64,000 nt of DNA from assembly GCA_963716195.1 (NCBI GenBank), contig OY970293.1, positions 408,462 through 472,461 on the forward strand. The letters run 5' to 3'. Made by a program: the position numbers and the translations under genes. The stretch's first letter is position 1; each line of letters starts with the position of its first letter. Origin of the DNA: an uncultured Solirubrobacterales bacterium. GTDB taxonomy: Bacteria > Actinomycetota > Thermoleophilia > Solirubrobacterales > JBBDJG01. Shown piece after piece: positions 5,294 to 25,408 of this stretch. A model generated the notes under the pieces. It saw nothing but the letters and a program-made list of their open reading frames with translations, had not been told where the DNA came from and did no database searches.

Positions 5294-5311
5294 TTGCTGA
5301 CGGAGACCCGC

Positions 5312-7576: not shown

Positions 7577-7631
7577 GCGAATACGTAGGACGTGCTGTCG
7601 CCTTCATGCGAAGCAGAAGCGAGCGCAAAAG

Positions 7632-8000: not shown

Positions 8001-8053
8001 GCGATGCCTGGATCAAAAGGTTGCCGGGCGGCAGAGAGGGTAGAAGGTTAGTG

Positions 8054-9271: not shown

Positions 9272-9294
9272 GGCCGCCGAGAGGAGAGGAAGCA

Positions 9295-10593: not shown

Positions 10594-10611
10594 CGTGGAC
10601 GCGCCGGTCCG

Positions 10612-11952
10612 ATGAGTGGAGGAGGAGCCGCGACGGCTGGGCCGGTCGCGGCTCCGCCCCCGGGCGCGGAACCCGGTTGGTGGCGTAGGAACCGCGTCGC
10701 GATCGCGTTCCTCGCCCCTGCCGCGATCCTGCTCGTTGTCTGGATCGTCTATCCGACGATCTACACGATCGTGCGCAGCTTCTTCGACCGCGACGGCTCG
10801 ACATTCATCGGGTTCGACAACTACCAGGAGCTGTTCTCCCAGGACACCCTCACGAGGGCGATCAAGAACAACGTGCTGTGGCTTGCGATCGTGCCTGCGT
10901 TCGTGACGGCGATCGGGCTGGTGTTCGCCGTCCTCCTCGAGCGCGTCCGCTGGTCCGTGGCGTTCAAGACTGTCGTCTTCATGCCGATGGCGATCTCGCT
11001 GTTCGCCGCAGGAGTGATCTGGCGCGTGATGGACGAGAAGGACCCGGACATCGGCGCGGTCAACGCCGCGATCGCCGTCATCGCCGATGAGGTCAACCCT
11101 CCGGGTGCCCTGTCGGAAGCGCAGCCCTCGAGCGACGATCTCACGGGCAGCGCGAAACAAGGACTGACATTGCGGCGACCGGTAGAGGCCGGCGATGTCG
11201 CCCACCTCGGACTCACCGGGATCCCGCCCGCGGAGGTACCAAAAGGCGCGGTCCAGGCTCGAGCACCCCCGGCTGAATCGGGCGCGATCGACGGGGTGGT
11301 CTGGCGCGACTTCAAGCCGGGCGGCGGCAAGCCCGGCGTCGTGGAGCAGGGTGAGCTCGGGCTGCCCGGCGTCACGGTCGAGCTGCACGATCGCGGCGGG
11401 GCCACCGTCGCGAAGACGGAGACGCGCGACGACGGAAGCTTCGCCTTCAACGAGGTCGAGGCCGGACCGCACCAGCTCGCGATCGGGAAGGAGACGTTCG
11501 AGGAACCCTTCGCCGGGGTGGCGTGGCTGGGAGCGAGCCTGATCACGCCCGCGATCATGCTCGCCTACATCTGGGTCTGGGCGGGCTTCGCGATGGTGGT
11601 GATCGGCGCCGGGCTGGCTGCGATTCCGCGCGACTTGCTCGAGGCGGCGCGCACCGACGGCGCGACTGAGGGACAGGTCTTTCGCCGGGTGACGGTGCCG
11701 CTCCTGCGGCCGGTGCTCGTCGTCGTCTTCGTGACGATGCTGATCAACGTGCTCAAGATCTTCGACATCGTGCTGTCGGTGGCGCCGGCGTCGAGCCAGG
11801 ACGAGGCCAACGTGATCGCGCTTGCGATGTGGCGCACCTCGTTCGGCGGCGTCAACGACTTCGGCCTCGGATCTGCGATCGCCGTGTTCCTGTTTCTGCT
11901 CGTGATCCCGATCCTGCTCCTCAACATCAGGAACTTCAGGAGGGAGGCCTGA
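10612..11952 (+). CDS. ABC sugar permease (MalF/UgpA type) with a ~140-aa insert containing an SdrD-B/CarboxypepD_reg-like beta-sandwich
   Basis: Permease core with EAARTDGATEGQVFRRVTVPLLRP (EAA loop). Insert ..GVVWRDFKPGGGKPGVVEQGELGLPGVTVELHDRGGATVAKTETRDDGSFAFNEVEAGPHQLAI.. lies at ~11080-11520. Confidence 0.85.
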   Translation: MSGGGAATAGPVAAPPPGAEPGWWRRNRVAIAFLAPAAILLVVWIVYPTIYTIVRSFFDRDGSTFIGFDNYQELFSQDTLTRAIKNNVLWLAIVPAFVTAIGLVFAVLLERVRWSVAFKTVVFMPMAISLFAAGVIWRVMDEKDPDIGAVNAAIAVIADEVNPPGALSEAQPSSDDLTGSAKQGLTLRRPVEAGDVAHLGLTGIPPAEVPKGAVQARAPPAESGAIDGVVWRDFKPGGGKPGVVEQGELGLPGVTVELHDRGGATVAKTETRDDGSFAFNEVEAGPHQLAIGKETFEEPFAGVAWLGASLITPAIMLAYIWVWAGFAMVVIGAGLAAIPRDLLEAARTDGATEGQVFRRVTVPLLRPVLVVVFVTMLINVLKIFDIVLSVAPASSQDEANVIALAMWRTSFGGVNDFGLGSAIAVFLFLLVIPILLLNIRNFRREA

Positions 11953-12791
11953 TGGCAGGTGCCGTCTCCCGAGCGCTCACCCGGGCCCCGCTCAACCTGC
12001 TGCTCGCCTTCATCGGGGTGTTGTGGCTGATACCGACGCTCGGCCTTTTCCTCGACTCCTTGCTTGCTCCGGACCAGATCGGCTCGATCGGCTGGTGGAA
12101 GATCTTCACCGAGCCGAGCATGGCCACGTTCGAGAACTACGGCAACGTGCTCGACAACGACTCGATCACGGGCGCGCTCGGAACGACCCTTCTGGTTGCC
12201 TCCTTCGGCACGGCGATCCCGATCTTCGTCGGCGCGCTTGCCGGCTACGCGTTCGCCTGGCTCGAGTTCCCGGGCCGGGACTGGCTGTTCCTGCTGGTCG
12301 TGGGACTGCTGGTGGTTCCGCTACAGATGGCGCTGATCCCGATGTTCTCTCTCTACAACGACCTTGGAATCTTCGACACCGCGCTCGCGCTGATCCTCTT
12401 CCACAGCGCGTTCGGGCTGCCGTTCGCGATCTTCCTGCTGCGGAACTTCTTCGTCGGAATCCCCAGAGACATCTTGGAGTCGGCGCGCATCGACGGCGCC
12501 TCGGAGCTGACGATCTTCCTGCGGCTGATCCTTCCCCTCGGCCTGCCGGCGATAGCGTCGCTCGCCATTTTCCAGTTCCTGTGGACCTGGAACGACTTTC
12601 TCGTGGCGCTCACGTTCGGACGCGACACGCAGGTGATCACCGTCGCGATCTTCTCCGAGTTCCGTCAGTTCGGCGCGAACCTCGAGCTGATCGCACCCGC
12701 CGCCTTCATCTCGCTGATCCTGCCGCTTGCCCTCTTCTTCGCCTTCCAGCGCTACTTCGTCGAGGGCCTCCTCGCGGGGTCGGTCAAGTGA
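11952..12791 (+). CDS. ABC sugar permease (MalG/UgpE type)
   Basis: TGATG overlap with the previous gene. ..ILESARIDGASELTIFLRLILPLGLPA.. (EAA loop), six TM segments. Confidence 0.85.
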   Translation: MAGAVSRALTRAPLNLLLAFIGVLWLIPTLGLFLDSLLAPDQIGSIGWWKIFTEPSMATFENYGNVLDNDSITGALGTTLLVASFGTAIPIFVGALAGYAFAWLEFPGRDWLFLLVVGLLVVPLQMALIPMFSLYNDLGIFDTALALILFHSAFGLPFAIFLLRNFFVGIPRDILESARIDGASELTIFLRLILPLGLPAIASLAIFQFLWTWNDFLVALTFGRDTQVITVAIFSEFRQFGANLELIAPAAFISLILPLALFFAFQRYFVEGLLAGSVK

Positions 12792-13051
12792 GGTGGAGTG
12801 CCGGAGGACTGCTTGAGGGTGGAGTGGTTCGTCTGGACACATGTTGCAGGCGTGCAACGGGGAACCCGATGCATACTCGCGGCCGGATCTGACCAGGCGA
12901 ACTCGTCGCAAGGCGGGGGCGCAAAGCCAGAGGTCTTGCTGTAGCGCAAGACGGCTCGGCCGCCGGTGGATCCTTGATCCATCGTAGGCAGGGGAGTCGC
13001 GGACCTCGTTTCGCTGGGCCCCTTGACACGGATGACCAAGGAGGTCAGTCA

Positions 13052-13555
13052 ATGTTCAGCAGCAAGTTCACCAAGAAGCGGGTGCTCACCGCGCTCGGCG
13101 TTCTCGGCGTCCTGGCGATCGCGTCCGTCGCGTTCGCATTCTGGACGACCTCGGGCTCCGGCTCGGGCTCCGCAACCGCCGGCACGGACGCCGGCGTGAG
13201 TGTTTCCGGCGATCCCTCCGACGGGATCTACCCGGGCTCGAGCGTCGCGGTGACGACCACCGTCACGAACGACAGCTCGACGCAGAGCCAGTACGTCACC
13301 AACCTGCACGTGGCGATCTCGATCGACGAGGCGCACGCAACGGCGGGCTGTGAGGCGAGCTGGTTCACCTACAAGGCCGACAGCGAGGCTTCGGGCGCGG
13401 ACTCGAACCCGCACACGGTCGCTCTGGACACCGAGCTCGCGGCCAGCGACAGCACCACGGTCGACGGACACGTGTTCATGGCCAACCCGGACACGAACCA
13501 GGACGCCTGCAAGGGCGCGACCATCGACCTCGCGTACACGGTCGACAACTCGTAG
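13052..13555 (+). CDS. Small secreted TasA/camelysin-like protein (putative major fibre subunit), gene A
   Basis: Strong SD aaggagg. Leader MFSSKFTKKRVLTALGVLGVLAIASVAFAFWTTSGSGSGSATAG. C-terminus ..NPDTNQDACKGATIDLAYTVDNS. Confidence 0.6.
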   Translation: MFSSKFTKKRVLTALGVLGVLAIASVAFAFWTTSGSGSGSATAGTDAGVSVSGDPSDGIYPGSSVAVTTTVTNDSSTQSQYVTNLHVAISIDEAHATAGCEASWFTYKADSEASGADSNPHTVALDTELAASDSTTVDGHVFMANPDTNQDACKGATIDLAYTVDNS

Positions 13556-13569
13556 CAACCCCGAGTACC

Positions 13570-13601
13570 GGAAGGGTGGCGGCTCCGGCTGCCGCCCTTC
13601 C
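13570..13601 (+). terminator. Hairpin (13-bp stem incl. 2 G-U, loop ctccgg) followed by a C/T-rich tract, after gene A
   Basis: ggaagggtggcgg-ctccgg-ctgccgcccttcc then tctccttcc. There is no clean U-run, so it is an attenuator or weak terminator at best. Confidence 0.45.
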
Positions 13602-13639
13602 TCTCCTTCCTAACCAACGACAACCCACTCACATTCGAG

Positions 13640-14764
13640 ATGAAGAGACTCCGGAAAACGACAGCGAGGAGTGCCAAGCGCAAGCTTGCGGTGGCCCTGC
13701 TCGGTGTTGCCGCCCTGTCGGGCGCCGGCGCCGTCTTCGCAGCCGGCGGAAAGCCTGATTTCTCCATCGCCGCGTCGCCCGGGTCCCAGACGGTCAGCCA
13801 GGGTGCAGCGACGACGTACACCGTGACCGTGACGAGACAGAACGGATTTTCTGGATCGGTCAGCCTCGCGATCAGCAATCTTCCAACCGGGGCGAGCGCG
13901 AGCTGGAAGCTCAGTGACGGAACGAGCTCGAGCGTCGTGCCGCCGAGCCTGAACAGCGCCACGCTGAAGATCCAGACGAGCTCGACCACCCCGAACGCGA
14001 CGTCACAGCCGGTCATCACCGCCACAAGCGGAAAGCTGTCTCACTCGATAGCGATCACGCTGGTCGTACAGCCCACCGCGCAGCCGAACTTCGCTGTCAC
14101 GGGGTCTCCGGCAAGCCAGCCGGTACCGCAGGGCGCCGACGCCTCCTACACGGTGCGGGTGAATCGCACGGGTGGTTTCAGCGAGTCGGTCGACCTGAGC
14201 GTCAGCGGACTGCCGAAGGGAGCGACCGCCTCCTGGATTCCGGGCAGCACCGTTCCCGGGACCAGCTCGGAGACGGCGCTGCAGATTCAGACCGCGAGCA
14301 ACACGCAGACGGGCACCTATGCGCTTGCGATCACCGGGACCGGCACGATCGGCGGAAGCGCCGCGTCCAGATCCTCGGCGGTGGTGTTGGACGTGCAGCG
14401 GAGCCAGAGCTTCCAGATCGAGGGCAACCTCGGCGCTCAGCTGGCCCCTGGACGGAGAGCCCCGCTCAACCTGTCGCTGACCAATCCGTACAACTTCGCT
14501 TTGACGATCACGGGACTTGCGGTCGCGGTCGAGGAGGAGACGAGCAAGACCGGCTGTAGCGGTACTCAGAACTTCGAGATCACGCAGGTGCCATCCGCGC
14601 GCTACCCGATCTCGCTGCCGGCCGGGCAGACGCGGACGCTTGCCGACCTCGGTGTGGCCGATGCCGACATGCCCCAGGTGGAGATGGTCAATCGACCCTG
14701 GAACCAGGACGCCTGCAAGGGCGCGACCATCAGCCTCGACTACAGCGGGAGCGCGGGCAAGTGA
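13640..14764 (+). CDS. Secreted multi-domain protein, gene B: two beta-sandwich domains plus a C-terminal domain paralogous to gene A
   Basis: Sec leader ..LLGVAALSGAGAVFAAGG. Duplicated ..TYTVTVTRQNGFSGSVSLAISNLPTGASASW.. / ..SYTVRVNRTGGFSESVDLSVSGLPKGATASW... C-terminus ..NRPWNQDACKGATISLDYSGSAGK. Confidence 0.6.
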   Translation: MKRLRKTTARSAKRKLAVALLGVAALSGAGAVFAAGGKPDFSIAASPGSQTVSQGAATTYTVTVTRQNGFSGSVSLAISNLPTGASASWKLSDGTSSSVVPPSLNSATLKIQTSSTTPNATSQPVITATSGKLSHSIAITLVVQPTAQPNFAVTGSPASQPVPQGADASYTVRVNRTGGFSESVDLSVSGLPKGATASWIPGSTVPGTSSETALQIQTASNTQTGTYALAITGTGTIGGSAASRSSAVVLDVQRSQSFQIEGNLGAQLAPGRRAPLNLSLTNPYNFALTITGLAVAVEEETSKTGCSGTQNFEITQVPSARYPISLPAGQTRTLADLGVADADMPQVEMVNRPWNQDACKGATISLDYSGSAGK

Positions 14765-16476
14765 CCGCGCGTCGCCTCGTCCAGATCGCTTTGCCCGTCG
14801 TAGTGATGCTGATGGTCGCCGCAAGTGCCTCGGCGCACTGGACTACCCAGGGCGCCGGGAACGCGTCCGCGAGCGTCGGCAGCTTGAACGCGCCGACCAA
14901 CGTCTCCGTACCGGCCAGCACGTCAGGCACCGTGCACGTCACCTGGAACAGCGCGACGCTCGACGACGGGCTGACGCCCGCGAGCGGCTATTACGTGACC
15001 CGGGTGAAGACAAGTGACGCGTCGACCGCGAACGCGTGCGGTACGAGCCCGTCGTCCCTGACGTCGTCCACGGCGACCTCCTGCGATGACACGACCGTTC
15101 CGGATGGGACCTATCACTACACGGTCACGGCCGTCTTTCGCTCCTGGACAGCAACGAGCGCGCCGAGCGGCAGCGTCGCAGTCGCTGCTCAGGCAACGCT
15201 CGATCATTTCGCCGTAACCACACCGGTGAGCGCCACGGCCGGCGCACCGTTCAGCGTGACGGTCACGGCCAAGGATGCGTCCAACAACACGTTCACCGGC
15301 TACACGGGAACGGTCCACTTCGAGACCGCCGATTCAGCGTCTCCCGTCCTGCCGTCGAACTACACGTTCGCGGCAGGCGACGGCGGCTCGCACACCTTTA
15401 CCAACGGCGTCACGCTCAAGACAGCCGGGAACCAGACCATTACCGTCAACGATACGGCTGAGACGTCGAAGACCGGCCAGGCCACGATCGACGTCAGCGC
15501 AGCCACGGCTCACCACTTCACGGTGACGGCCCCTGCCACGGCGACGGCGGGCACCGCGTTCAGCACGGTGACGCTGACCGCCAAGGATGCCTACAACAAC
15601 ACGGCCACCGGCTACACGGGCAACCGCACGATCAGCTGGAGCGGCGCCTCCACGAGCCCAGGCGGCAACGCCCCGAGCTATCCGACCGGCACCGTGGCGT
15701 TCGCGAACGGCGTCAGTACGACGACGCTGACGGCGACATTGTTCGCCGCAGGCTCCAACAGCCTCACCGCGACCGCGAGCTCGCCGAGCGTGACCGGCAC
15801 GGCCGCGATCAGCGTCAGCGCAGCCGCGGCCGACCACTTCACGGTGACGGCCCCGGCCACGGCGACGGCGGGCACCGCGTTTAGCACGGTGACGCTGACC
15901 GCCAAGGATGCCTACAACAACACGGCCACCGGCTACACGGGCAACCGCACGATCAGCTGGAGCGGCGCCTCCACGAGCCCAGGCGGCAACGCCCCGAGCT
16001 ATCCGACCGGGACCGTGGCGTTCGCGAACGGCGTCAGTACGACGACGCTGACGGCGACATTGTTCGCCGCAGGCTCCAACAGCCTCACCGCGACCGCGAG
16101 CTCGCCGAGCGTGACCGGCACGGCCGCGATCAGCGTCAACTCGGCCGGCGTCGTGCTCTCTTACAACCGCACCTGCCCGGTGGCGGTTCCGAAGAATTCC
16201 TCGACAGCATTCACGATCGTCGTCCCGAACGACGCCTACGGCAACTCGTTCCGGAACGCTTCGGGGATCGGGATCGGTCTCACCTTGAGCAACGGAACCA
16301 ATTTCGGCTTCGGCGCGGTCGGGACGACCACGACCACGGTCACCATCACGACCGGCCCGGCAACCAACACCTTCACCGTGGCTGAGAGCGGGGCTAACAA
16401 GACGACGAGCCTCACCGCGACCGCTCCGGCCGGCTTCACGGCGCCCGGGTCCTGCACGATCAGCGCCGGGAACTAG
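14761..16476 (+). CDS. Secreted FN3 plus Ig-like-repeat protein, gene C, with a gene-A-like leader
   Basis: GTGA overlap with gene B. Leader ..VVVMLMVAASASAHWTTQGAGNASASVG. FN3-like ..GTVHVTWNSATLDDG..GYYVTRV..YHYTVTAVFRSW. Repeated HFxVTxPxxATAGxxFxVTxTAKDxxNN..YTG.. Ig-like domains. Confidence 0.65.
   Translation: MTARRLVQIALPVVVMLMVAASASAHWTTQGAGNASASVGSLNAPTNVSVPASTSGTVHVTWNSATLDDGLTPASGYYVTRVKTSDASTANACGTSPSSLTSSTATSCDDTTVPDGTYHYTVTAVFRSWTATSAPSGSVAVAAQATLDHFAVTTPVSATAGAPFSVTVTAKDASNNTFTGYTGTVHFETADSASPVLPSNYTFAAGDGGSHTFTNGVTLKTAGNQTITVNDTAETSKTGQATIDVSAATAHHFTVTAPATATAGTAFSTVTLTAKDAYNNTATGYTGNRTISWSGASTSPGGNAPSYPTGTVAFANGVSTTTLTATLFAAGSNSLTATASSPSVTGTAAISVSAAAADHFTVTAPATATAGTAFSTVTLTAKDAYNNTATGYTGNRTISWSGASTSPGGNAPSYPTGTVAFANGVSTTTLTATLFAAGSNSLTATASSPSVTGTAAISVNSAGVVLSYNRTCPVAVPKNSSTAFTIVVPNDAYGNSFRNASGIGIGLTLSNGTNFGFGAVGTTTTTVTITTGPATNTFTVAESGANKTTSLTATAPAGFTAPGSCTISAGN
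15492..16134 (+). repeat. Near-perfect 321-bp (107-aa) tandem duplication inside gene C
   Basis: 15492-15812 vs 15813-16133: only a handful of substitutions (e.g. SAATAHHF vs SAAAADHF). Both copies encode the same Ig-like domain. Confidence 0.9.
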
Positions 16477-16499
16477 CCAAGCCTCCGCCGCCGCGCCCT

Positions 16500-16650
16500 G
16501 CCGACGCAGGTCCGCCCGAAAATCCGAGGTTTGGCTTTCGCAGTTCGGGGTGGTCTCAAGAACCACCCGAAATCCGCTGGGTCTCCGCCCACCCAGGCGG
16601 CACGTCATCTCGTAATGAAGGGGTCCCCGGTTCGAATCCGGGCGTCGGCT
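16500..16650 (+). ncRNA. 151-nt tRNA-like element (perfect 7-bp acceptor plus canonical T-arm, tRNA-Thr(CGU)-like 3' half, ~75 nt of extra helices)
   Basis: gccgacg (16500-06) is complementary to cgtcggc (16643-49). T-arm cccgg-TTCGAAT-ccggg (16626-42). Loop ctCGTaa at 16609-15. Internal perfect hairpin gggtggt-CUCAAGA-accaccc (16548-68). Confidence 0.4.
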
Positions 16651-16698
16651 TCCCTTCATCTGCGTTCCTGAAACCGAGCGGAATCGGTTTCTAAGGTC

Positions 16699-16728
16699 TT
16701 GACTTTCTCCGCATTTTGCGGATACGTT
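16699..16728 (+). promoter_or_regulatory. Candidate sigma70-type promoter for the adhesin gene
   Basis: TTGACT-N18-TACGTT in the only lower-GC stretch of the region, ~75 nt upstream of ATG 16805 (SD ggagg). An 8-bp hairpin gaaaccga/tcggtttc at 16670-16691 lies just upstream. Confidence 0.3.
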
Positions 16729-16804
16729 TGGTCAAGTAGGGATTCGTACGCAGGGGATTCGCAGGCAGGGACGTCGAAGGACGGACCCGACAACGGAGGC
16801 ACGA

Positions 16805-19800
16805 ATGCTCTCAGGGGATCTGCGCGCGACGGCGCGCTCACGTAGTTCTGTCGCACCAACCGCCGGGCACGGCGCAGCCACAGGCCACCGGAGGAACCGA
16901 GCGGGGCGCGGCGGGTCAGCCCGCCGCAGGCCATTGGCTCTGGTCGCTCTCCTCGCCCTTCTCGTCGCTTCGGCGGCGCTCATGGTCGGCACCGCCTCTG
17001 CCTCCGCCGCGGTCATCCTCAACCCGGACTCGGGCGGCCAGAACGACATCGATCCCAGCTCGCTCAACAACCAGAGCGATCTGAGCGCGTACGGGATCAG
17101 CGGCACCGGCGCCGCCAACACGACGACGCAATACGGCTGGAAGTGGGACGAGCCCTTCCTGTCGGGCAACAACAGCCTCGACGTGTGCGTCTACCTGAGC
17201 TCGACCACGAGCGGCAGCTCTGATCCGAATGCCGCCGAGTATGCCGTCTGCTTCGACGTCACCACCGACTCCCAAGGGAATCCCACTACTACGGACATCA
17301 CCTACTGGTACTGCCCGACCTACAGCACCGCGGACGCCTCCAGCGGTGGTCAGAAATGCTTCGGCAACAGCAGCGAGCTCCCCGCGGGGCCGGACAGCGC
17401 GGTCATCAGCGCAACCGCTGCCCTCACGACGAACGTTGCACCCCAGTTCGCAAGCGACCCCGACAGGGACACCCAGGTCGTCCTGGACGTGACGCCGAAC
17501 CTGAATCTGACCCTGGTCAACATCTGCAGCAAGAAGAGCGCTTCTCCGTCATCGGATTCCTCCGACTGCGGTCTCGAGCGCGCACCAGCGTTCCTGAAGC
17601 TCGTCAAGACAGTTCAGGATGGAGACGCGGTTCCCGCCGACTGGACACTGTCCTGGGACGGCCCTGGCACGAACGACGGATCGGTGGCCGGTGACAACAC
17701 GCAGTTCGTCCCGGTGCCCGATGGCACGTACAACCTTTCGGAGTCCGGTCCGAGCACCTACGAGCAGGTCTCGCTCGTTTGCTCGCCGACGGCGAACACG
17801 GGTAACTCGGTCACTCTGGGTCAGGGCGTTCAGGAGACCTGCACGTTCACCAACAAGCTCAAATTCATCCCCGACCCGCACCTGGCGATCACCAAGACGG
17901 CGACCGAGGCCAACTACGACGCGGTCGGCGACGTCATCCACTACACGATCGTGGCCACCAACGACGGCAACACGACGCTCACCGGCGTGACCGTCACCGA
18001 CCCCAAGGTCTCAGGCCTCGACTGCACGCCGGCCAACGGCTCGGACCTGGCGCCCGGCGCCTCGATCAGCTGCACCGCCAGCCACACGGTCACCCAGGCC
18101 GACATCGACGCCGGCAACTACGCCAACCAGGCCTGCGTTAACGACGGCGACGGCGGCGCGGCCGCGGTCTGCGCGGACGAGGACGTCCCCGCGGTCCAAA
18201 GCCCGCACCTGGCGATCACCAAGACGGCGACCGAGGCCAACTACGACGCGGTCGGCGACGTCATCCACTACACGATCGTGGCCACCAACGACGGCAACAC
18301 GACGCTCACCGGCGTGACCGTCACCGACCCCAAGGTCTCAGGCCTCGACTGCACGCCGGCCAACGGCTCGGACCTGGCGCCCGGCGCCTCGATCAGCTGC
18401 ACCGCCAGCCACACGGTCACCCAGGCCGACATCGACGCCGGCAACTACGCCAACCAGGCCTGCGTTAACGACGGCGACGGCGGCGCGGCCGCGGTCTGCG
18501 CGGACGAGGACGTCCCCGCGGTCCAAAGCCCGCACCTGGCGATCACCAAGACGGCGACCGAGGCCAACTACGACGCGGTCGGCGACGTCATCCACTACAC
18601 GATCGTGGCCACCAACGACGGCAACACGACGCTCACCGGCGTGACCGTCACCGACCCCAAGGTCTCAGGCCTCGACTGCACGCCGGCCAACGGCTCGGAC
18701 CTGGCGCCCGGCGCCTCGATCAGCTGCACCGCCAGCCACACGGTCACCCAGGCCGACATCGACGCCGGCAACTACGCCAACCAGGCCTGCGTTAACGACG
18801 GCGACGGCGGCGCGGCCGCGGTCTGCGCGGACGAGGACGTCCCCGCGGTCCAAAGCCCGCACCTGGCGATCACCAAGACGGCGACCGAGGCCAACTACGA
18901 CGCGGTCGGCGACGTCATCCACTACACGATCGTGGCCACCAACGACGGCAACACGACGCTCACCGGCGTGACCGTCACCGACCCCAAGGTCTCAGGCCTC
19001 GACTGCACGCCGGCCAACGGCTCGGACCTGGCGCCCGGCGCCTCGATCAGCTGCACCGCCAGCCACACGGTCACCCAGGCCGACATCGACGCCGGCAACT
19101 ACGCCAACCAGGCCTGCGTTAACGACGGCGACGGCGGCGCGGCCGCGGTCTGCGCGGACGAGGACGTCCCCGCGGTCCAAAGCCCGCACCTGGCGATCAC
19201 CAAGACGGCGACCGAGGCCAACTACGACGCGGTCGGCGACGTCATCCACTACACGATCGTGGCCACCAACGACGGCAACACGACGCTCACCGGCGTGACC
19301 GTCACCGACCCCAAGGTCTCAGGCCTCGACTGCACGCCGGCCAACGGCTCGGACCTGGCGCCCGGCGCCTCGATCAGCTGCACCGCCAGCCACACGGTCA
19401 CCCAGGCCGACATCGACGCCGGCAACTACGCCAACCAGGCCTGCGTTAACGACGGCGACGGCGGCGCGGCCGCGGTCTGCGCGGACGAGGACGTCCCCGC
19501 GGTCCAAAGCCCGCACCTGGCGATCACCAAGACGGCGACCGAGGCCAACTACGACGCGGTCGGCGACGTCATCCACTACACGATCGTGGCCACCAACGAC
19601 GGCAACACGACGCTCACCGGCGTGACCGTCACCGACCCCAAGGTCTCAGGCCTCGACTGCACGCCGGCCAACGGCTCGGACCTGGCGCCCGGCGCCTCGA
19701 TCAGCTGCACCGCCAGCCACACGGTCACCCAGGCCGACATCGACGCCGGCAACTACGCCAACCAGGCCTGCGTTAACGACGGCGACGGCGGCGCGGCCGC

Positions 19801-21967
19801 GGTCTGCGCGGACGAGGACGTCCCCGCGGTCCAAAGCCCGCACCTGGCGATCACCAAGACGGCGACCGAGGCCAACTACGACGCGGTCGGCGACGTCATC
19901 CACTACACGATCGTGGCCACCAACGACGGCAACACGACGCTCACCGGCGTGACCGTCACCGACCCCAAGGTCTCAGGCCTCGACTGCACGCCGGCCAACG
20001 GCTCGGACCTGGCGCCCGGCGCCTCGATCAGCTGCACCGCCAGCCACACGGTCACCCAGGCCGACATCGACGCCGGCAACTACGCCAACCAGGCCTGCGT
20101 TAACGACGGCGACGGCGGCGCGGCCGCGGTCTGCGCGGACGAGGACGTCCCCGCGGTCCAAAGCCCGCACCTGGCGATCACCAAGACGGCGACCGAGGCC
20201 AACTACGACGCGGTCGGCGACGTCATCCACTACACGATCGTGGCCACCAACGACGGCAACACGACGCTCACCGGCGTGACCGTCACCGACCCCAAGGTCT
20301 CAGGCCTCGACTGCACGCCGGCCAACGGCTCGGACCTGGCGCCCGGCGCCTCGATCAGCTGCACCGCCAGCCACACGGTCACCCAGGCCGACATCGACGC
20401 CGGCAACTACGCCAACCAGGCCTGCGTTAACGACGGCGACGGCGGCGCGGCCGCGGTCTGCGCGGACGAGGACGTCCCCGCGGTCCAAAGCCCGCACCTG
20501 GCGATCACCAAGACGGCGACCGAGGCCAACTACGACGCGGTCGGCGACGTCATCCACTACACGATCGTGGCCACCAACGACGGCAACACGACGCTCACCG
20601 GCGTGACCGTCACCGACCCCAAGGTCTCAGGCCTCGACTGCACGCCGGCCAACGGCTCGGACCTGGCGCCCGGCGCCTCGATCAGCTGCACCGCCAGCCA
20701 CACGGTCACCCAGGCCGACATCGACGCCGGCAACTACGCCAACCAGGCCTGCGTTAACGACGGCGACGGCGGCGCGGCCGCGGTCTGCGCGGACGAGGAC
20801 GTCCCCGCGGTCCAAAGCCCGCACCTGGCGATCACCAAGACGGCGACCGAGGCCAACTACGACGCGGTCGGCGACGTCATCCACTACACGATCGTGGCCA
20901 CCAACGACGGCAACACGACGCTCACCGGCGTGACCGTCACCGACCCCAAGGTCTCAGGCCTCGACTGCACGCCGGCCAACGGCTCGGACCTGGCGCCCGG
21001 CGCCTCGATCAGCTGCACCGCCAGCCACACGGTCACCCAGGCCGACATCGACGCCGGCAACTACGCCAACCAGGCCTGCGTTAACGACGGCGACGGCGGC
21101 GCGGCCGCGGTCTGCGCGGACGAGGACGTCCCCGCGGTCCAAAGCCCGAGGATAGGGTTGACCAAGACGCCCAACCCGACGACCTACAGCGCCGCCGGCC
21201 AGATCATCAACTACACGATCGTTGCGGCCAACACCGGCAACGTGACGCTGCACGACGTGACGGTCACCGACTCGAAGCTGGGCCCGCTGACCTGCACGCC
21301 CACCCAGCCGTCGACGCTCCTCCCCGGCGCTTCGATGAGCTGCACCGGCAGCTACACGATCCAGCCGGGTGACGTCAAGGCCGACAACACCGGCACGGTG
21401 GTGAACACGGCGAACACTGCCGGCAAGGGCCCGCAGGACCAGCCGGTCTCGAACACCGCGACCGCCACCGTCCGCCAGGTGCCGGCGACCGGCAAGATCA
21501 CGCCCACGGCCACCACCTGTCAGCAGTTCGCCAACGGCACCAACGGCGAGCTGACGGACGAGCTGTACACCGTCAAGGGCCAGAAAATCAACAGCATCGC
21601 CCCCGGCGTGTTCTTCTACTACAGCAAGATCACGGCGCCGGCGAGCGCCTTCACGATCGAGGTGAAGCAGTCGAACACCCTCAACTGGAGGCTGATCGGA
21701 ACGCAACAGCTGATCCTGTGGGATGCGAACTGCGTCAAGACCTTCGTGTCCGGGTCTTACAACTCGATCACAGGGACGGTGACGTTCAACGCGTCAGGCT
21801 TGACGTCTGGTACGACCTACTACATCAGCATCAAGTACGACCCGGGCTCGCTCTCGGGGCAGACGGTCGGCAACACGAAGCCGACGAGCGTGTACACGTT
21901 CAAGACGTACATCAACGGCGGCGTGGTTCTGACCAGCCAGGACAGCGTGAACGTGAAGGCGAAGTAA
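16805..21967 (+). CDS. 1720-aa secreted repeat adhesin: leader, N-terminal domain, SpaA/prealbumin-like domain, 10+1 DUF11-type repeats, ~270-aa C-terminal domain; no LPXTG
   Basis: Leader ..RRRPLALVALLALLVASAALMVGTASASA. ..LKLVKTVQDGDAVPADWTLSW..TCTFTNK. Repeat unit LAITKTATEANYDAVGDVIHYTIVATNDGNTTLTGVTVTDPKVSGLDCTP..SCTASHTVTQADIDAGNYANQACV... Ends ..VLTSQDSVNVKAK. Confidence 0.9.
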   Translation: MLSGDLRATARSRSSVAPTAGHGAATGHRRNRAGRGGSARRRPLALVALLALLVASAALMVGTASASAAVILNPDSGGQNDIDPSSLNNQSDLSAYGISGTGAANTTTQYGWKWDEPFLSGNNSLDVCVYLSSTTSGSSDPNAAEYAVCFDVTTDSQGNPTTTDITYWYCPTYSTADASSGGQKCFGNSSELPAGPDSAVISATAALTTNVAPQFASDPDRDTQVVLDVTPNLNLTLVNICSKKSASPSSDSSDCGLERAPAFLKLVKTVQDGDAVPADWTLSWDGPGTNDGSVAGDNTQFVPVPDGTYNLSESGPSTYEQVSLVCSPTANTGNSVTLGQGVQETCTFTNKLKFIPDPHLAITKTATEANYDAVGDVIHYTIVATNDGNTTLTGVTVTDPKVSGLDCTPANGSDLAPGASISCTASHTVTQADIDAGNYANQACVNDGDGGAAAVCADEDVPAVQSPHLAITKTATEANYDAVGDVIHYTIVATNDGNTTLTGVTVTDPKVSGLDCTPANGSDLAPGASISCTASHTVTQADIDAGNYANQACVNDGDGGAAAVCADEDVPAVQSPHLAITKTATEANYDAVGDVIHYTIVATNDGNTTLTGVTVTDPKVSGLDCTPANGSDLAPGASISCTASHTVTQADIDAGNYANQACVNDGDGGAAAVCADEDVPAVQSPHLAITKTATEANYDAVGDVIHYTIVATNDGNTTLTGVTVTDPKVSGLDCTPANGSDLAPGASISCTASHTVTQADIDAGNYANQACVNDGDGGAAAVCADEDVPAVQSPHLAITKTATEANYDAVGDVIHYTIVATNDGNTTLTGVTVTDPKVSGLDCTPANGSDLAPGASISCTASHTVTQADIDAGNYANQACVNDGDGGAAAVCADEDVPAVQSPHLAITKTATEANYDAVGDVIHYTIVATNDGNTTLTGVTVTDPKVSGLDCTPANGSDLAPGASISCTASHTVTQADIDAGNYANQACVNDGDGGAAAVCADEDVPAVQSPHLAITKTATEANYDAVGDVIHYTIVATNDGNTTLTGVTVTDPKVSGLDCTPANGSDLAPGASISCTASHTVTQADIDAGNYANQACVNDGDGGAAAVCADEDVPAVQSPHLAITKTATEANYDAVGDVIHYTIVATNDGNTTLTGVTVTDPKVSGLDCTPANGSDLAPGASISCTASHTVTQADIDAGNYANQACVNDGDGGAAAVCADEDVPAVQSPHLAITKTATEANYDAVGDVIHYTIVATNDGNTTLTGVTVTDPKVSGLDCTPANGSDLAPGASISCTASHTVTQADIDAGNYANQACVNDGDGGAAAVCADEDVPAVQSPHLAITKTATEANYDAVGDVIHYTIVATNDGNTTLTGVTVTDPKVSGLDCTPANGSDLAPGASISCTASHTVTQADIDAGNYANQACVNDGDGGAAAVCADEDVPAVQSPRIGLTKTPNPTTYSAAGQIINYTIVAANTGNVTLHDVTVTDSKLGPLTCTPTQPSTLLPGASMSCTGSYTIQPGDVKADNTGTVVNTANTAGKGPQDQPVSNTATATVRQVPATGKITPTATTCQQFANGTNGELTDELYTVKGQKINSIAPGVFFYYSKITAPASAFTIEVKQSNTLNWRLIGTQQLILWDANCVKTFVSGSYNSITGTVTFNASGLTSGTTYYISIKYDPGSLSGQTVGNTKPTSVYTFKTYINGGVVLTSQDSVNVKAK
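17876..21148 (+). repeat. Ten tandem, apparently nucleotide-identical 327-bp (109-aa) repeats, followed by one diverged 11th unit (to ~21480)
   Basis: Period 327 (e.g. ccgcacctggcgatc at 17876, 18203, ...). Identical protein units, and nine identical antisense ORFs spaced 327 bp apart in the ORF track. Confidence 0.95.
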
Positions 21968-22168
21968 CGCGCGATCCGTCGGGCTTGTACCGACTGAGAC
22001 CAGATGAAGCGGAGGGGGTCCACCTCGAAGCGGGCCTCCTCCTCAACTTCTCTCGCGCGGCAGGCACGTGACCTTCTACAGTGACGAGGCGGTTCAGCGG
22101 GAGTCCTGGAGGGGCGACGAGCCCGCGGTCCAGTCGCCAGTCACCGCCAACGACACGGAAGAGCACGC

Positions 22169-22642
22169 ATGAAGAACGCACTCGCGATCGTCCTGGCACT
22201 CGTAGTTGCCGCAGTAGCGGCTCCTACCCTCGCCGGCGCGGCCGGGGCGGCCGCCACGACCTACAGGCTCAGCGCGAAGATGAACCCGCGCCAGGTGGTG
22301 ACGCCCAAGAACAAGCCGTGGAAGGCGCCCGCCAAGGTCGCCGACGCCAAGGGCACTTTCACCGGCACTTTCAACAGGAAGACCCGCAAGCTCAAGTGGC
22401 GCATCACGTACTCGGGAATCGGCAGCCGGCGCCTCACCCTCGCCGACGTCCACCGCGGCCCGCGGGGCAAGTTCGGCGCGATCATCGTTCGCCTCTGCCG
22501 AGACTGCAAGTCTGGTCAGAAGGGCGTCAGAAAGATCAAGCGCTCCTTCGTCAACGCCGTTACATCGGGCAACAGCTGGGTCACGGTGATCACCGACAAG
22601 TACCCAAACGGCGTAATCCGCGGACAGATCAAGGTCAGATAG
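22169..22642 (+). CDS. Secreted CHRD domain protein
   Basis: Leader MKNALAIVLALVVAAVAAPTLAGA. ..LSAKMNPRQVV..AKGTFTGTF..LKWRITYSGI..ADVHRGPRG..WVTVITDKYPNGVIRGQI. Confidence 0.7.
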   Translation: MKNALAIVLALVVAAVAAPTLAGAAGAAATTYRLSAKMNPRQVVTPKNKPWKAPAKVADAKGTFTGTFNRKTRKLKWRITYSGIGSRRLTLADVHRGPRGKFGAIIVRLCRDCKSGQKGVRKIKRSFVNAVTSGNSWVTVITDKYPNGVIRGQIKVR

Positions 22643-22769
22643 CACGGGACGGAGTCCGGCGCGCTGCGGCCGCTGTGGCGCCGTCATCCAGGGTTGCGCT
22701 CGAGCAGCCGTACGCATAGACGGGGCACCTCCTCGCTAGCCGGAGGCTCGGCCGGGAGAATGTGCGACC

Positions 22770-23804
22770 GTGGCCCAGGCTCCGGTACGTACTCAGCATC
22801 GGCCCATCACCCGTGGCACGGTGCTGAAGCGCGTGCTGGCGGTGATGGTGGCCGGGGCGGCGCTGTATGGACTTGCGCCCCAGCTCGGTCAGGTGCTCGG
22901 GGACTGGCCGCGCCTGCGTGAAATTGAACCCGGCTGGTTCGCGGTGATGGCCGCGACCGAGAGCGCGAGCCTCGTCTGCATGTGCACGGTGCAGCGAATC
23001 GCCGCCCGGGGGCGCCGCCTGCCGCCGTTCCTGCGCTCGTACCTCGTCGGCAATTCAGTGAGCTCGCTCGTGCCGGGAGGTGCGGCAACGTCTGCGGCGC
23101 TGCAGTACGAGATGCTGGTGCAGGAAGGAGTCTCTTCTGCCCGCGCCGCGTCCGGCATGGCCGCCGCCTCGGTGGTCGTATTCGGGACGCTGTTGCTCTT
23201 GAACGCGCTGTCGCTGCCGCTGGTGGTGCTGGGCGTGAGCGTACCCACGGACCTGCTGACGGTGGGGTGGATCTCGGCGGCGCTGCTGCTGGGCGTCCTG
23301 CTGATCGGCTGGCTCGCGCTCAGGGACGACGGTTTCCTGACCGCAGTTGGCCGAGCGGCTCAGTGGACCATCAACAAGCTGAGGCGGCACTCTCATCCGG
23401 TGCAGGATCTGCCCGAGCGGCTGCTTGCCCAGCGCACCGCCGTCGCGGAGGTCGTGGGCGATCGCTGGTGGCAGGCGCTGCTGGCCGCAGCCGGCAAGTG
23501 GGTGTTCGACTACCTCACGCTCGTCTTCGCTCTCGCCGCCGTGGGCGCGCGTCCCAACGTCGCGCTGGTGCTCGTCGCCTACTCGGCGGCAGCGCTTCTC
23601 GGGCAGATCCCACTCACTCCCGGCGGGCTCGGCGTGGTCGAGGCGGGCCTCACGGCGACACTCGCACTGATCGGCGTGGGCGGTGGGCAGGCCGTGCTCG
23701 CCACGCTCGCGTACCGGCTGTTCAACTACTGGCTCTACCTGCCGGCCGGCCTCGTCGGCCTGATCCTGCACAGGCGCGCCGTCCACTCGTCACAGCTCGC
23801 CTAA
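22770..23804 (+). CDS. Flippase-like / lysylphosphatidylglycerol-synthase-TM-domain (UPF0104) membrane protein
   Basis: 8 TM segments. ..YLVGNSVSSLVPGGAATSAALQYEML.. and ..LLGQIPLTPGGLGVVEAGLTATL... The start could be a downstream GTG. Confidence 0.7.
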   Translation: MAQAPVRTQHRPITRGTVLKRVLAVMVAGAALYGLAPQLGQVLGDWPRLREIEPGWFAVMAATESASLVCMCTVQRIAARGRRLPPFLRSYLVGNSVSSLVPGGAATSAALQYEMLVQEGVSSARAASGMAAASVVVFGTLLLLNALSLPLVVLGVSVPTDLLTVGWISAALLLGVLLIGWLALRDDGFLTAVGRAAQWTINKLRRHSHPVQDLPERLLAQRTAVAEVVGDRWWQALLAAAGKWVFDYLTLVFALAAVGARPNVALVLVAYSAAALLGQIPLTPGGLGVVEAGLTATLALIGVGGGQAVLATLAYRLFNYWLYLPAGLVGLILHRRAVHSSQLA

Positions 23805-25408
23805 CGAGTCTTCAGCTTCGGCGAGACCTTCTTCGTAACGGTGCGGGTGTGGCCCTCGGGGTCTTTGACCCTGGCCTTGAGACGGAGAGAGAGCTTGGCC
23901 TTGCGCTTGAGAAGGCGGACCAGCTTCTTCGGCAGCTTCAGACCGATGCGCTTCTTTGCTTTCGCTCTGAGGGTAAAGGCCTTACCTCTGATCGCGACGC
24001 GTCGCTTGCGCATAACGGACACCTTGCCGGAGACCGCGAAGCTGTTTCCGTTCGCGACGACGACCTTGAGCCGGCCGCTGGCCGGAATCCGCCCGGCTGC
24101 GAGCCTCAGCGTGACGAGTGTCTTGGCGCCGAAGTGCGGCCGCCGCGCCGAGCCAGCCGCCGTGACGGTGTGGGCCGTGCTCGTCTGCGAGGCGCTGCCC
24201 GCCGGGTTTGAGGCGGTGACCGTGCAGCGGTAGTCCCCGGCCGCGGAGGCCCTGTGCACGTTCGTGCCGGCACCGGCGATCGCTTGGCCGTTCAGCGTCC
24301 AGGAATATGCAAATCCCTGGGGCACGCGGTACAGAAAGGAGGCGAGTAGGTCCGGCGCCCAGGAACCTTGCGAGCACGTCAGCACGGAACCCGCTCCGGA
24401 GCCGCCCGCAATCGTGGGCGCCCCGGCACCACTCGGGGCCTGGAGCAGCGCGACATACATCGACCCGTTGACCGTCGCGCCCGTCGTGCTCAGGTTGCCG
24501 CCGCGACTCCCGTCCAGATTGGCGAACGAGATCTTGTTGCCGGTTCGGTTCGCCCAGTAGATCTTCCTCGCCGACGGGTCAATCGCCACGCCGGCGGGAT
24601 AGTTCACCGTCGCCCCACTGGTGTTCAGGTTGCCGCCGCCTGTGCCATTCAGGTTGGCGTAGGAGATCTTCTGACCCCATAGGTTGGCCCAGTAGATCCG
24701 GCCGCCAACCGGGTCGAGCGCCACGCCGTGCGGGTTGTCCACCGTCGCGGCACCGGTATTGAGGTCATCACCGCCGCTGCCGTCGAGGCTGGCGAAGGAG
24801 ATCTTGTTGCCGGGGTTGCCGTTGCCCCAGTAGATCCTTCCCGTCCCGGGGTCGAGCGCAGGACCGATCGGGACGTCAACCGTCGCGCCCAGCGTACTCA
24901 GGTTGCCGCCACCGCCGCTGCCGTCGAGGCTGGCGAAGGAGATCCTGTCGCCTAACTCATTTGCCCAGTAGACCCTGCCGGCTTGAGGGTAAGCGGCCGC
25001 GACGTTCGGACGGTCCACCGCCGCACCCGCGGTGTTGAGGTCCCCGCTGCCGCCGCTTCCGTCCAGGTTGGTGAAGGAGATCGCGTCGTTGTCCGGGTTC
25101 GTCCAGTAGATCCTTCCCGCCGCTACGTCGATCGACACTCCACGTGGACCGCCGCTTGTCGCACCGGTGGTGCTGAGATCGCCGGCGCCGCTTCCATCGA
25201 GGTTGGCGAACGAGATCCTGCCGTTGCTGGTTTCAAGGTAGTTGGCCCAGTACACCCGCGCGCTCGCGCTTGCCGAAGACGGCACGCAGGCCCAGGCGAA
25301 CAGGGACGCGAAGAAGAGGCAGATGAGCAGCCTAAGGCGCAGCGAACGCCCAAGACTACGCTGCTCGTCAGACGCCGGGGGCGAGACGAATTTCGCGGCC
25401 GCGGTCAT
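23801..25408 (-). CDS. Secreted six-bladed YWTD (LDL-receptor class B-like) beta-propeller, Ig-like domain and basic C-terminal domain
   Basis: Six repeats of (R/K)(I/V)YW(A/T/G)N..ISFANLDGSGG..L.T.GATV. Then ..VLTCSQGSWAP..YRCTVTASNPAGS. Tail ..RLKVVVANGNSFAVSGKVSV..LSLRLKARVKDPEGHTRTVTKKVSPKLKTR. Confidence 0.8.
   Translation of the reverse strand: MTAAAKFVSPPASDEQRSLGRSLRLRLLICLFFASLFAWACVPSSASASARVYWANYLETSNGRISFANLDGSGAGDLSTTGATSGGPRGVSIDVAAGRIYWTNPDNDAISFTNLDGSGGSGDLNTAGAAVDRPNVAAAYPQAGRVYWANELGDRISFASLDGSGGGGNLSTLGATVDVPIGPALDPGTGRIYWGNGNPGNKISFASLDGSGGDDLNTGAATVDNPHGVALDPVGGRIYWANLWGQKISYANLNGTGGGNLNTSGATVNYPAGVAIDPSARKIYWANRTGNKISFANLDGSRGGNLSTTGATVNGSMYVALLQAPSGAGAPTIAGGSGAGSVLTCSQGSWAPDLLASFLYRVPQGFAYSWTLNGQAIAGAGTNVHRASAAGDYRCTVTASNPAGSASQTSTAHTVTAAGSARRPHFGAKTLVTLRLAAGRIPASGRLKVVVANGNSFAVSGKVSVMRKRRVAIRGKAFTLRAKAKKRIGLKLPKKLVRLLKRKAKLSLRLKARVKDPEGHTRTVTKKVSPKLKTR

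Follow-up and report, generated by a model that had tools for sequence, protein, structure and literature searches.

The window analysed here is a stretch of 64,000 nucleotides, and the gene of interest lies on its + strand at 16805..21967. The open reading frame is preceded by a Shine-Dalgarno-like GGAGG (16795..16799, +), read in the sequence 5 nt 5' of the ATG, and has a GC3 of 0.93. It encodes a secreted fibrillar-adhesin-like protein of 1720 residues, identical to database protein P0001. No RNA family match was found directly 5' of the gene, and no promoter-like or terminator-like site was found on the + strand from 16300 to 22900. There is a T-arm-like sequence at approximately 16618-16650, which was discarded as a tRNA-like fragment on the grounds that it is called by neither ARAGORN nor Rfam. 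A c-di-GMP-I riboswitch lies 5' of a neighbouring cluster of genes for secreted proteins. A strain-specific segment of 3.7 kb has no flanking direct repeats.

The protein begins with an N-terminal leader (residues 1-68; 16805..17008, +), identified by a hydropathy scan and by eye. The leader has an Arg-rich n-region, a hydrophobic core at residues 43-62, which is the only hydrophobic segment detected in the whole protein by the hydropathy scan, and a sequence, ASASA/AV, that resembles a signal-peptidase I site. There follow an N-terminal Cys-rich β domain (residues 69-260; 17009..17584, +); a SpaA_2 prealbumin-like (CnaB-type) domain (residues 261-347; 17585..17845, +), which matches Pfam PF19403 at 52.8 bits against a cutoff of 25; ten identical CLIPPER_2 (DUF7507) domains of 109 residues (residues 358-1447; 17875..21148, +); an eleventh and divergent CLIPPER_2 unit (residues 1448-1556; 21146..21472, +), located by alignment and by Pfam; and a C-terminal domain of 164 residues (residues 1557-1720; 21473..21964, +), which is predicted to be a CnaA-like β-sandwich. 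Pfam recognises 11 stretches of DUF7507 (944.2 bits, cutoff 27) and 11 stretches of DUF11 (247 bits, cutoff 24.6), and there is a match of 262 bits to TIGR01451. The mature protein is strongly acidic, with 185 Asp and Glu against 48 Lys and Arg. We propose that the product is a Sec-exported extracellular fibre of approximately 1,650 residues, of the fibrillar-adhesin or 'Periscope Protein' type, in what is probably a Gaiellales-like actinobacterium. The rod of this fibre would consist of one CnaB-type SpaA_2 domain and eleven CnaA-type CLIPPER_2 domains.

The ten repeats form a perfect tandem array of 10 x 327 bp, with units starting at 17876 + 327k. Tandem Repeats Finder reports a period of 327, 10.0 copies, 100% matches and 0 indels for 17875-21148, and a direct comparison of unit against unit gave 0 mismatches across all ten, including the units at the two edges. 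The periodic identity extends over 3274 bp, which is 10 x 327 plus 4 nt, CCCG, with which the following unit also starts. The array is in frame within the 1720-residue reading frame and is an exact multiple of 327 bp. The ten nucleotide-identical repeats originally noted are therefore present in the sequence as assembled, and chance cannot account for 3.27 kb of perfect identity. Adjacent units in 120 related multi-unit proteins have a median identity of 63%, and 100% is attained by just two of these proteins, one of them that of the window.

The eleventh unit differs from the repeated unit at 130/327 nt (60% nucleotide identity), and the two are 44% identical in protein as aligned by MAFFT. 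It had been correctly described as divergent, although the earlier figure of 35-40% amino acid identity was slightly low. It retains K7, D42 and the Asn discussed below, and its two Cys correspond to the first Cys pair only.

The domains within the stalk have been further analysed. DUF11 (PF01345) and DUF7507 (PF24346) were renamed CLIPPER and CLIPPER_2 in 2025, when they were shown to be CnaA-like and to contain an isopeptide bond within the domain (Costa et al. 2025, PMC12617251). A DUF11/CLIPPER domain has been crystallised (9IFR), and its Lys-Asn bond raises both thermal and protease stability (PMC12617251). The original prediction had asked whether a unit might contain isopeptide bonds, a question that PMC12617251 had already settled for the CLIPPER family. 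The crystallised domain is of the DUF11 type, from an Acinetobacter adhesin, and is too distant from the window units to be retrieved by a sequence profile of 19 units; neither this profile nor the whole protein gave a meaningful PDB match. The predicted triad, K7, D42 and N84, is present in every repeated unit, and across 435 distinct related units it is conserved at 434/435 (K7), 425/435 (D42) and 434/435 (N84). K7 and N84 fall at approximately positions 8 and 88 of the domain, matching the published DUF7507 example, which has K72 and N152 in a domain starting at residue 65 (PMC12617251). Each CLIPPER_2 unit is thus probably locked by a spontaneous Lys-Asn isopeptide bond between K7 and N84, with D42 as the catalyst. 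The SpaA_2 domain has a candidate triad of its own, consisting of the K in LVK, the E in LSE and the N in FTN, with the type of triad assigned from PMC12617251. Across 14 aligned relatives both K and E are conserved, and N or D occupies the FTN position.

Each repeated unit also contains four Cys (C50, C66, C87 and C99), as expected from the paired Cys described earlier. The pairing is strengthened by covariation across the 435 units: C50 and C66 are either both present or both absent in 429 of them, and C87 and C99 in 434. This pattern suggests that each repeated unit probably has two disulfides, C50-C66 and C87-C99. Disulfides accompany the isopeptide signature in around 35% of CLIPPER_2 domains, often in Actinomycetota (PMC12617251), and their predicted presence in the window units is a further point of similarity to this family, in addition to the strong HMM match, the Lys-Asp-Asn at the expected positions, and the arrangement as a tandem stalk behind a signal peptide. 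Nucleotide-identical repeats such as those of the window gene are not discussed in the CLIPPER survey (PMC12617251). The unit is 73% identical in protein between a genome of 67% GC and one of 39% GC, and one possibility is that the 109-residue four-Cys stalk unit is a horizontally shared, amplification-prone module.

Neither of the terminal domains matches a Pfam or NCBIfam family, and profile-profile comparison found no sequence relationship between the two. The N-terminal domain is conserved directly before a SpaA-like domain in around 14 other CLIPPER_2 proteins, and a Gaiella MAG carries an N-terminal region that is 72% identical. Its AlphaFold2 model is poor (pLDDT 58), and this model gave no Foldseek match below E = 0.1. 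The AlphaFold2 model for the C-terminal domain is confident (pLDDT 95.4), and a Foldseek search against the PDB matched it to Ig-like domains of adhesins at E ~1e-5. The nearest folds are the N2 domains of Cnm and Cna, the AgI/II C-terminal domains and pilin domains, with a weak resemblance (TM 0.36-0.51, ~10% identity). The domain ends in a conserved tail, DSVNVKAK, and belongs to a family with 1,315 cluster representatives. It is the last domain of the protein in 123/147 (84%) of the members examined, and in most of the others examined it is found directly before a type IX secretion sorting domain (Por_Secre_tail). It is preceded by a CLIPPER_2 unit in the window protein and in those relatives whose upstream sequence was inspected. 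Many of its database relatives are short C-terminal fragments. Two further ideas about this domain found no support. It might have been a twelfth and degenerate unit, but profile-profile comparison gave no relationship to CLIPPER_2. It might also have contained an isopeptide triad, but although K121 is invariant, neither an Asn or Asp partner of equal invariance nor a Lys in the first strand was found.

The number of units was compared with that in related genes. The closest strain is represented by L006, a syntenic metagenome contig of 5.5 kb that is 94-95% identical in nucleotide sequence, and its gene has one unit of the repeat type followed by one of the eleventh type. The single unit differs from the window unit at 19/327 nt, and the flanks differ by 3.4-3.6%. 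At all 19 sites all ten window copies bear the window base and not that of L006, from which it follows that the amplification or homogenisation postdates the split from the L006 strain. This uniformity argues for the recent expansion or homogenisation put forward in the original prediction.

A second comparison is provided by a pair of more distant orthologues, L004 with three units and L005 with two, which differ by exactly 327 bp. The extra unit in L004 is a hybrid, its 5' part coming from unit B and its 3' part from unit A, as unequal crossing-over would yield, and the suggestion of unequal recombination gains support from it. The differences in repeat number (10 in the window against 1 in L006, and 3 in L004 against 2 in L005) come from relatives on contigs of 5-9 kb, which may be collapsed, as an assembler can pass through the repeat loop too seldom on contigs of this kind. 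A metagenome scan for further orthologues returned only the known loci and two fragments. Comparable homogenised arrays are found in three other genes, two of them on megabase contigs. L003 has 12 x 327 bp on a contig of 5.16 Mb, with ten units identical and two carrying 2 mismatches each. The 11 units of L012 fall into interleaved classes, with 100% identity inside each class, and L011 has a homogenised array resembling that of L012. The P0017 lineage showed no copy-number variation, the order of its units being constant in three samples (with Flye-style contig names). Within the P0017 cluster, proteins of 1668 and 1088 residues had looked like a copy-number difference, but this was discarded: a 1-nt insertion splits the gene and the order of units is unchanged.

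On the basis of these observations, we hypothesise that a single unit was recently amplified in frame to give the array, after the split from a strain that is ~95% identical and whose gene shows one copy. We infer that the first duplication would have occurred by slippage at the CCCG homology common to the starts of adjoining units. Later expansion would then proceed by unequal homologous recombination or by replication slippage between identical units. The same process would be expected to go on altering the copy number, and hence to change the length of the stalk in steps of one domain, each estimated at ~4-5 nm from the usual size of Ig-like domains. Such changes would alter how far a terminal domain projects. 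Taken together, a periscope-type Sec-exported fibre, a recent amplification of a single unit, and an expected continuing change of copy number and length make up the reading that we consider likely.

The same pattern could instead belong to an older array, in which concerted evolution, by way of gene conversion and unequal exchange, has continuously kept the units identical; there would then have been no single recent burst from one unit. Homogenised arrays do recur in the subfamily, the interleaved classes imply repeated exchanges of blocks, and the single unit of L006, on its 5.5-kb contig, could be a collapsed array. However, under long-term unequal exchange the units at the edges usually drift, and here the two outermost units match the inner ones at 100%. 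The homogenisation also ends abruptly at the 4-nt boundary, with the adjoining eleventh unit just 60% identical, and the closest strain, taken at face value, carries a single unit. A long history of concerted evolution therefore seems unlikely, and recent amplification is preferred.

A further question is where the protein is located. A regular-expression scan of the 1720-residue protein found no LPXTG, LAXTG, lipobox or PEP-CTERM. There is no C-terminal membrane segment (over the final 200 residues the 19-residue hydropathy peaks at 0.87), and there is no sortase among the window ORFs scanned. The original prediction that no standard anchor is present is thus corroborated by both the motif scan and the hydropathy scan. 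No Pfam adhesive domain was found in the protein, and the labels 'adhesin' and 'contingency' are inferences.

Because it has none of these anchors, the protein might be released as an extracellular component of a biofilm matrix or sheath, in which case the repeats would provide bulk, multivalency or mechanical toughness and not an adjustable reach. The very acidic mature chain would suit this reading, as would the riboswitch upstream of the neighbouring secreted-protein cluster, since c-di-GMP is a signal linked to biofilm formation, and DUF11 proteins are found also in archaeal sheath and S-layer contexts (PMC12617251). That cluster is however missing from L006, and is hence no obligatory partner. 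Nor is the lack of a recognised anchor unusual, as it is shared by around half of the training set used for fibrillar adhesins (PMC9210967), and the succession of signal peptide, head domain, Ig-like stalk and terminal β-sandwich is the layout of a fibrillar adhesin. In those relatives that use type IX secretion, moreover, the C-terminal domain adjoins Por_Secre_tail, and is thus next to the point of attachment. We regard release as improbable, and have a weak preference for non-covalent retention on the cell through the C-terminal domain. It is conceivable, if doubtful, that this domain is a new module for retention in the cell envelope, acting as a base in place of LPXTG-type anchors.

The caution about copy number in the original prediction is a valid one. 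Assemblers are well known to have trouble with identical 327-bp repeats, polishing to a consensus can remove the small differences that distinguish near-identical units, and L006, the closest relative, shows a single unit. The identical protein P0001 is on record from a single contig of 3,879,407 bp (3.88 Mb), which points to a long-read assembly without demonstrating one. It is nevertheless very unlikely that the array is an artefact of assembly or polishing, with a different true number of units or with units that are near-identical rather than identical: a contig of 3,879,407 bp would be difficult to assemble unless the reads greatly exceeded 3.3 kb; the length of the array divides exactly by 327 bp and the frame is kept through 1720 codons; collapse lowers the copy number, so that ten is more likely to be an under-count than an over-count; and independent arrays on megabase contigs retain small differences (the units with 2 mismatches in L003 and the interleaved classes in L012), from which it follows that such pipelines do not always erase variation.

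The proposed fibre can be compared with several known systems. The Periscope Proteins include SasG/Aap, Rib/alpha C, Sgo_0707, Esp and CdrA (Whelan et al. 2021, PMC8201768; review PMC9704523). Like these, the window protein is a secreted single chain of tandem folded Ig-like (E-set) domains with a distinct domain at each end, and its repeats have a very high identity at the DNA level, which in the window array reaches 100% over 10 x 327 bp. In Periscope Proteins there is homologous recombination between near-identical repeats (PMC8201768, PMC9704523); the copy number of the window gene is likewise expected to vary by this route, and appears to differ between close strains. There are also differences. 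The repeat family is CLIPPER_2, which is not mentioned in the main text of PMC8201768; the host is an environmental actinobacterium and not a host-associated pathogen; motif and hydropathy scans found no cell-wall tether; and the apparent length variation comes from metagenome contigs and not from long-read isolate genomes.

The protein also resembles the fibrillar adhesins of Firmicutes and Actinobacteria (Monzon et al. 2022, PMC9210967) in its great length, its signal peptide and its repeats of a known stalk domain. It differs from them in having no known adhesive domain, both terminal domains coming from undescribed families. With the sortase-dependent MSCRAMMs and pilins (Cna, Cnm, AgI/II and SpaA-type) it shares CnaA- and CnaB-type isopeptide domains, and it is among these proteins that the nearest folds to its C-terminal domain are found. 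Unlike sortase substrates, it has no LPXTG signal and no match to a pilin motif, and the ORFs scanned include no sortase.

We take the array to be real, and the protein fits the published concept of Periscope Proteins and fibrillar adhesins. For genes of this kind, copy numbers can be trusted only when reads span the array, and short-read metagenomes will under-report or break them. Both of the undescribed terminal families merit description; for the C-terminal one there are over 1,000 clusters, and its model is confident. If the C-terminal domain is indeed a retention module, then the gene would encode a tunable spacer separating the cell from an undescribed head domain at the N-terminus, and such a spacer would be found in non-pathogenic environmental bacteria.

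Most of the documented 'Periscope' stalks of variable length come from host-associated pathogens. With the present gene the idea reaches an environmental actinobacterium, and also CLIPPER_2, an isopeptide domain that was characterised only recently. Periscope Proteins breach the usual rule that neighbouring domains diverge in sequence, a divergence that is thought to limit misfolding between domains (PMC8201768). Identical neighbours may be tolerated where each unit is held by an isopeptide bond together with two disulfides, and for this the locus described here offers a clean natural test case.

The array occupies positions 17875–21148, where Tandem Repeats Finder reports a single array with a period of 327, 10.0 copies, 100% matches and no indels, and a unit-by-unit comparison finds no mismatch among all ten units. 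Each base is the same as the base 327 further on from 17875 to 20821, giving a periodic region of 3274 bp, that is, ten units plus 4 nt (CCCG) common to the start of the next unit. A 1720-aa ORF (16805–21967, + strand) contains the array in frame, and GGAGG can be read 5 nt upstream of its ATG. The eleventh unit differs from the repeated unit at 130 of 327 nt, with a protein identity of 44%. The original prediction, of ten mismatch-free units in frame in a 1720-aa ORF and a divergent eleventh, is essentially correct. The protein is recorded on one contig of 3,879,407 bp, which argues for the use of reads long enough to bridge 3.3 kb.

The domains within the protein were analysed using Pfam and NCBIfam. 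Pfam identifies a SpaA_2 prealbumin-like domain (residues 261–347) and eleven DUF7507 stretches (944 bits), which overlap eleven DUF11 stretches; NCBIfam finds the TIGR01451 repeat. Residues 69–260 and 1557–1720 match no family in either database, permissive thresholds included. In related loci PF01345 (DUF11) and PF24346 (DUF7507) carry the newer labels CLIPPER and CLIPPER_2, names that come from Costa et al. 2025 (PMC12617251). The protein belongs to the CLIPPER_2 and SpaA_2 families.

Its only hydrophobic segment is the N-terminal leader, consisting of an Arg-rich n-region and a core at residues 43–62, followed by ASASA|AV. The mature protein is strongly acidic. A sequence scan found no LPXTG, LAXTG, lipobox, PEP-CTERM or C-terminal hydrophobic tail, and Pfam finds no sortase among the neighbouring ORFs and most other likely genes of the window. 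The protein is not a sortase substrate. Absence of a recognised anchor is common in the fibrillar-adhesin class; only about half of the published training set has a known one (PMC9210967).

DUF11 and DUF7507 have been described as CnaA-like Ig domains with a Lys-Asp-Asn signature for an intramolecular isopeptide bond (PMC12617251). The bond is visible in 9IFR, the crystal structure of a DUF11/CLIPPER domain; it lifts the melting temperature from about 45 °C to about 80 °C and confers protection from proteinase K (PMC12617251). About 35% of CLIPPER_2 domains, often from Actinomycetota, have disulfides alongside this signature, and SpaA_2 is classed as a CnaB-type Lys/Glu/Asn domain (PMC12617251). 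An alignment of 435 distinct full-length units related to the repeated unit has K7 in 434, D42 in 425 and N84 in 434. K7 and N84, at approximately positions 8 and 88 of the domain, are in the same places as in the published DUF7507 example (PMC12617251). C50 and C66 are jointly present or absent in 429 of the 435 units, and C87 and C99 in 434, which points to two putative disulfides per unit, C50–C66 and C87–C99. The suggestion that the units might contain disulfides or isopeptide bonds can thus be answered, at the level of sequence, with probably both, the triad being conserved and the cysteines covarying. For SpaA_2, the lysine of LVK and the glutamate of LSE are kept throughout 14 aligned relatives, and the FTN position holds either N or D.

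The N-terminal domain (residues 69–260) is Cys-rich, with motifs that include D-x-GG-x-ND and W-x-WD. About 14 other CLIPPER_2 proteins have this domain immediately ahead of a SpaA-like domain, and it is also found in a protein from a Gaiella MAG, there with a different stalk. Its predicted model is poor (pLDDT 58), and no fold match was found with it. The AlphaFold2 model of the C-terminal domain (residues 1557–1720) has a pLDDT of 95.4 and a pTM of 0.89, and is a β-sandwich of about eleven strands. A Foldseek search of the PDB matches it to adhesin-type Ig-like domains with E values of 1e-5 to 5e-4, including Cnm/Cna N2, AgI/II C-terminal domains, PrgB, shaft and basal pilins and 9IFR, at TM-scores of just 0.36–0.51 and sequence identities of about 10%. 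Profile-profile comparison detected no sequence relationship between this domain and CLIPPER_2.

A profile search of 1.84 billion representatives places 1,315 proteins in the C-terminal domain family at E ≤ 0.001. Among the best 147 of these, 123 terminate within 3 residues of the end of the domain, with a conserved tail resembling DSVNVKPK, and where anything follows it, the commonest element is a type IX secretion sorting domain. The C-terminal domain is therefore not itself the type IX sorting signal, but in these relatives it adjoins the attachment point, which weakly favours a protein based at its C-terminal end, with the N-terminal domain forming the distal head. The N-terminal domain is not always the tip of the protein, since a 76% orthologue (P0022, at 50–3649 of contig locus L004) has about 210 extra residues before it, which include a separate signal peptide and a pair of Ig-like modules.

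The profile search with the C-terminal domain also recovered P0141, encoded on a 5.5-kb metagenome contig (L006) that is 94–95% identical to the window in nucleotide sequence and syntenic on both sides of the gene. The L006 gene shares the N-terminal domain, SpaA_2, the eleventh-type unit and the C-terminal domain, and has the amplified unit in single copy. This unit differs from that of the window at 19 of 327 nt (5.8%), compared with 3.4–3.6% in the gene flanks. At all 19 sites, all ten copies have the base of the window, a uniformity that bears out the proposed recent expansion or homogenisation and places the acquisition of identity after the two lineages split. The alternative, an array long kept identical by homogenisation, may apply if the L006 assembly collapsed, as its single unit may reflect. 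The edge units of the array are also perfect and identity ends sharply at the 4-nt boundary, and on this basis the preferred reading is a burst of recent amplification that started from one or a few units.

A more distant pair of orthologues comes from two strains that are 98.5–98.8% identical to each other; compared with the window's protein, their N-terminal domain is 76% identical and their C-terminal domain about 60%. There are three units in L004 and two in L005. Unit 1 is the same in both, and L004 unit 3 is the same as L005 unit 2 save for one base. The extra middle unit of L004 is of the second type over positions 5–122 and of the first type over 170–323, exactly the hybrid of its two neighbours that unequal crossing-over would produce. 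This agrees with the unequal recombination of the original prediction, with the caveat that the L004/L005 arrangement would be a loop in a short-read assembly graph, possibly traversed too few times.

Homogenised arrays are found elsewhere. In an organism of 39% GC, L003 (gene at 6001–12729 of the locus; 5.16-Mb contig) has 12 units of 327 bp, ten identical and two with two mismatches each; the unit is 73% identical in protein to that of the window. An IS605-family OrfB gene lies directly upstream. The eleven 330-bp units of L012 (gene at 5001–10721 of the locus; 1.18-Mb contig) fall into interleaved classes, with 100% identity within each class. Both come from one metagenome (ERZ25072999) and belong to the 109–110-aa, four-Cys subtype, and their units are 64–73% identical in protein to that of the window despite the 39% GC of L003. 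L011 has two interleaved unit families with 99.4–100% identity inside each. Genes of the type encoding the database protein P0017 occur in three samples (L011, L013 and L014) with one and the same unit order, A B C B C C B C C; the L013 gene (3001–8008) is divided into ORFs of 1088 and 534 aa by a 1-nt insertion, which reflects a long-read indel error or else a pseudogene. Adjacent units have a median identity of 63% across the 120 relatives that score best, with at least 90% reached in six proteins and 100% in only two. Both perfect arrays and the L012 array sit on megabase contigs, and many database relatives are short C-terminal fragments, which fits the breakage and collapse expected in short-read assemblies.

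Upstream of the gene is a c-di-GMP-I riboswitch (RF01051; 12886–12967, + strand; 52.7 bits, gathering score 35, E 1.9e-7), the only Rfam match of the window at the gathering threshold. About 85 nt downstream of it comes a run of three consecutive secreted-protein genes (13049–13555, 13640–14764 and 14761–16476, + strand), none of which matches a Pfam or NCBIfam family. Past the hydrophobic leader, similar motifs occur in the first and third proteins (AFAFWTTSGSGSG and ASAHWTTQGAGNAS), the first and second share the C-terminal motif NQDACKGATI(D/S)L(A/D)Y, and together the three may represent a fibre or pilus-like set. The third gene contains another tandem repeat, also in frame (15471–16138; 321-bp unit, 2.1 copies, 96% identity), which encodes Ig-like units of the type HFTVTAPATATAGTAF. 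The riboswitch and the three genes occupy a 3.7-kb segment (12809–16551), for which no flanking direct repeats were found; this segment is missing from the approximately 95%-identical L006, where 226 bp (2200–2425) that read as an ECF-sigma region 2 fragment take its place. The adhesin-like gene thus adjoins a strain-specific surface-protein cluster with an upstream c-di-GMP riboswitch, to which it is not obligatorily linked. Between the segment and the gene, GGGGTCCCCGGTTCGAATCCGGGCGTCGGC (about 16618–16650) resembles a tRNA T-arm and 3' half; it is conserved in L006 and is called by neither ARAGORN nor Rfam.

It is worth adding some observations on other genes of the window. Tad/type II secretion-like genes lie at 13–4078 (+), with a T2SSE ATPase fragment at the window edge and a pair of T2SSF membrane proteins; DUF192 and a PEMT/ICMT-like methyltransferase come next. 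An ABC-transporter permease (BPD_transp_1; 10612–11952, +) has an inserted SdrD_B/CarboxypepD_reg-like Ig domain, an unusual location, and is kept in L006 (3–1343). The gene at 23801–25408 (−) encodes a secreted β-propeller (LDL-receptor class B/NHL-like repeats) that also has a PKD-like domain and, at the C-terminus, a long tail rich in Lys/Arg; it may be another surface protein, with unconventional, charge-based attachment. An adenylate/guanylate cyclase domain occurs together with AAA_16 in each of two large adjacent proteins (42368–46084 and 46510–49833, +), and a smaller third protein with a cyclase domain is nearby (53641–54516, +).

The closest concept is the class of Periscope Proteins, in which the stalk of a surface protein consists of highly similar domains in tandem and homologous recombination alters the number of repeats, changing the reach of the end domain (PMC8201768, PMC9704523). 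The window's protein has such repeats, between-strain variation of its gene is suggested but not secure, and it has no known surface-attachment motif; it is therefore best described as functioning in the manner of a Periscope Protein, on a stalk of CLIPPER_2, or, more loosely, as fibrillar-adhesin-like. Current knowledge is not contradicted, and the novelty is in the detail: an environmental actinobacterium with a CLIPPER_2 array of ten perfect copies, a comparative dating that puts its amplification later than a strain split of about 5%, the signature of a recombinant unit among orthologues, and two terminal domain families so far undescribed. For the specialist, it is a neat example that holds little surprise.
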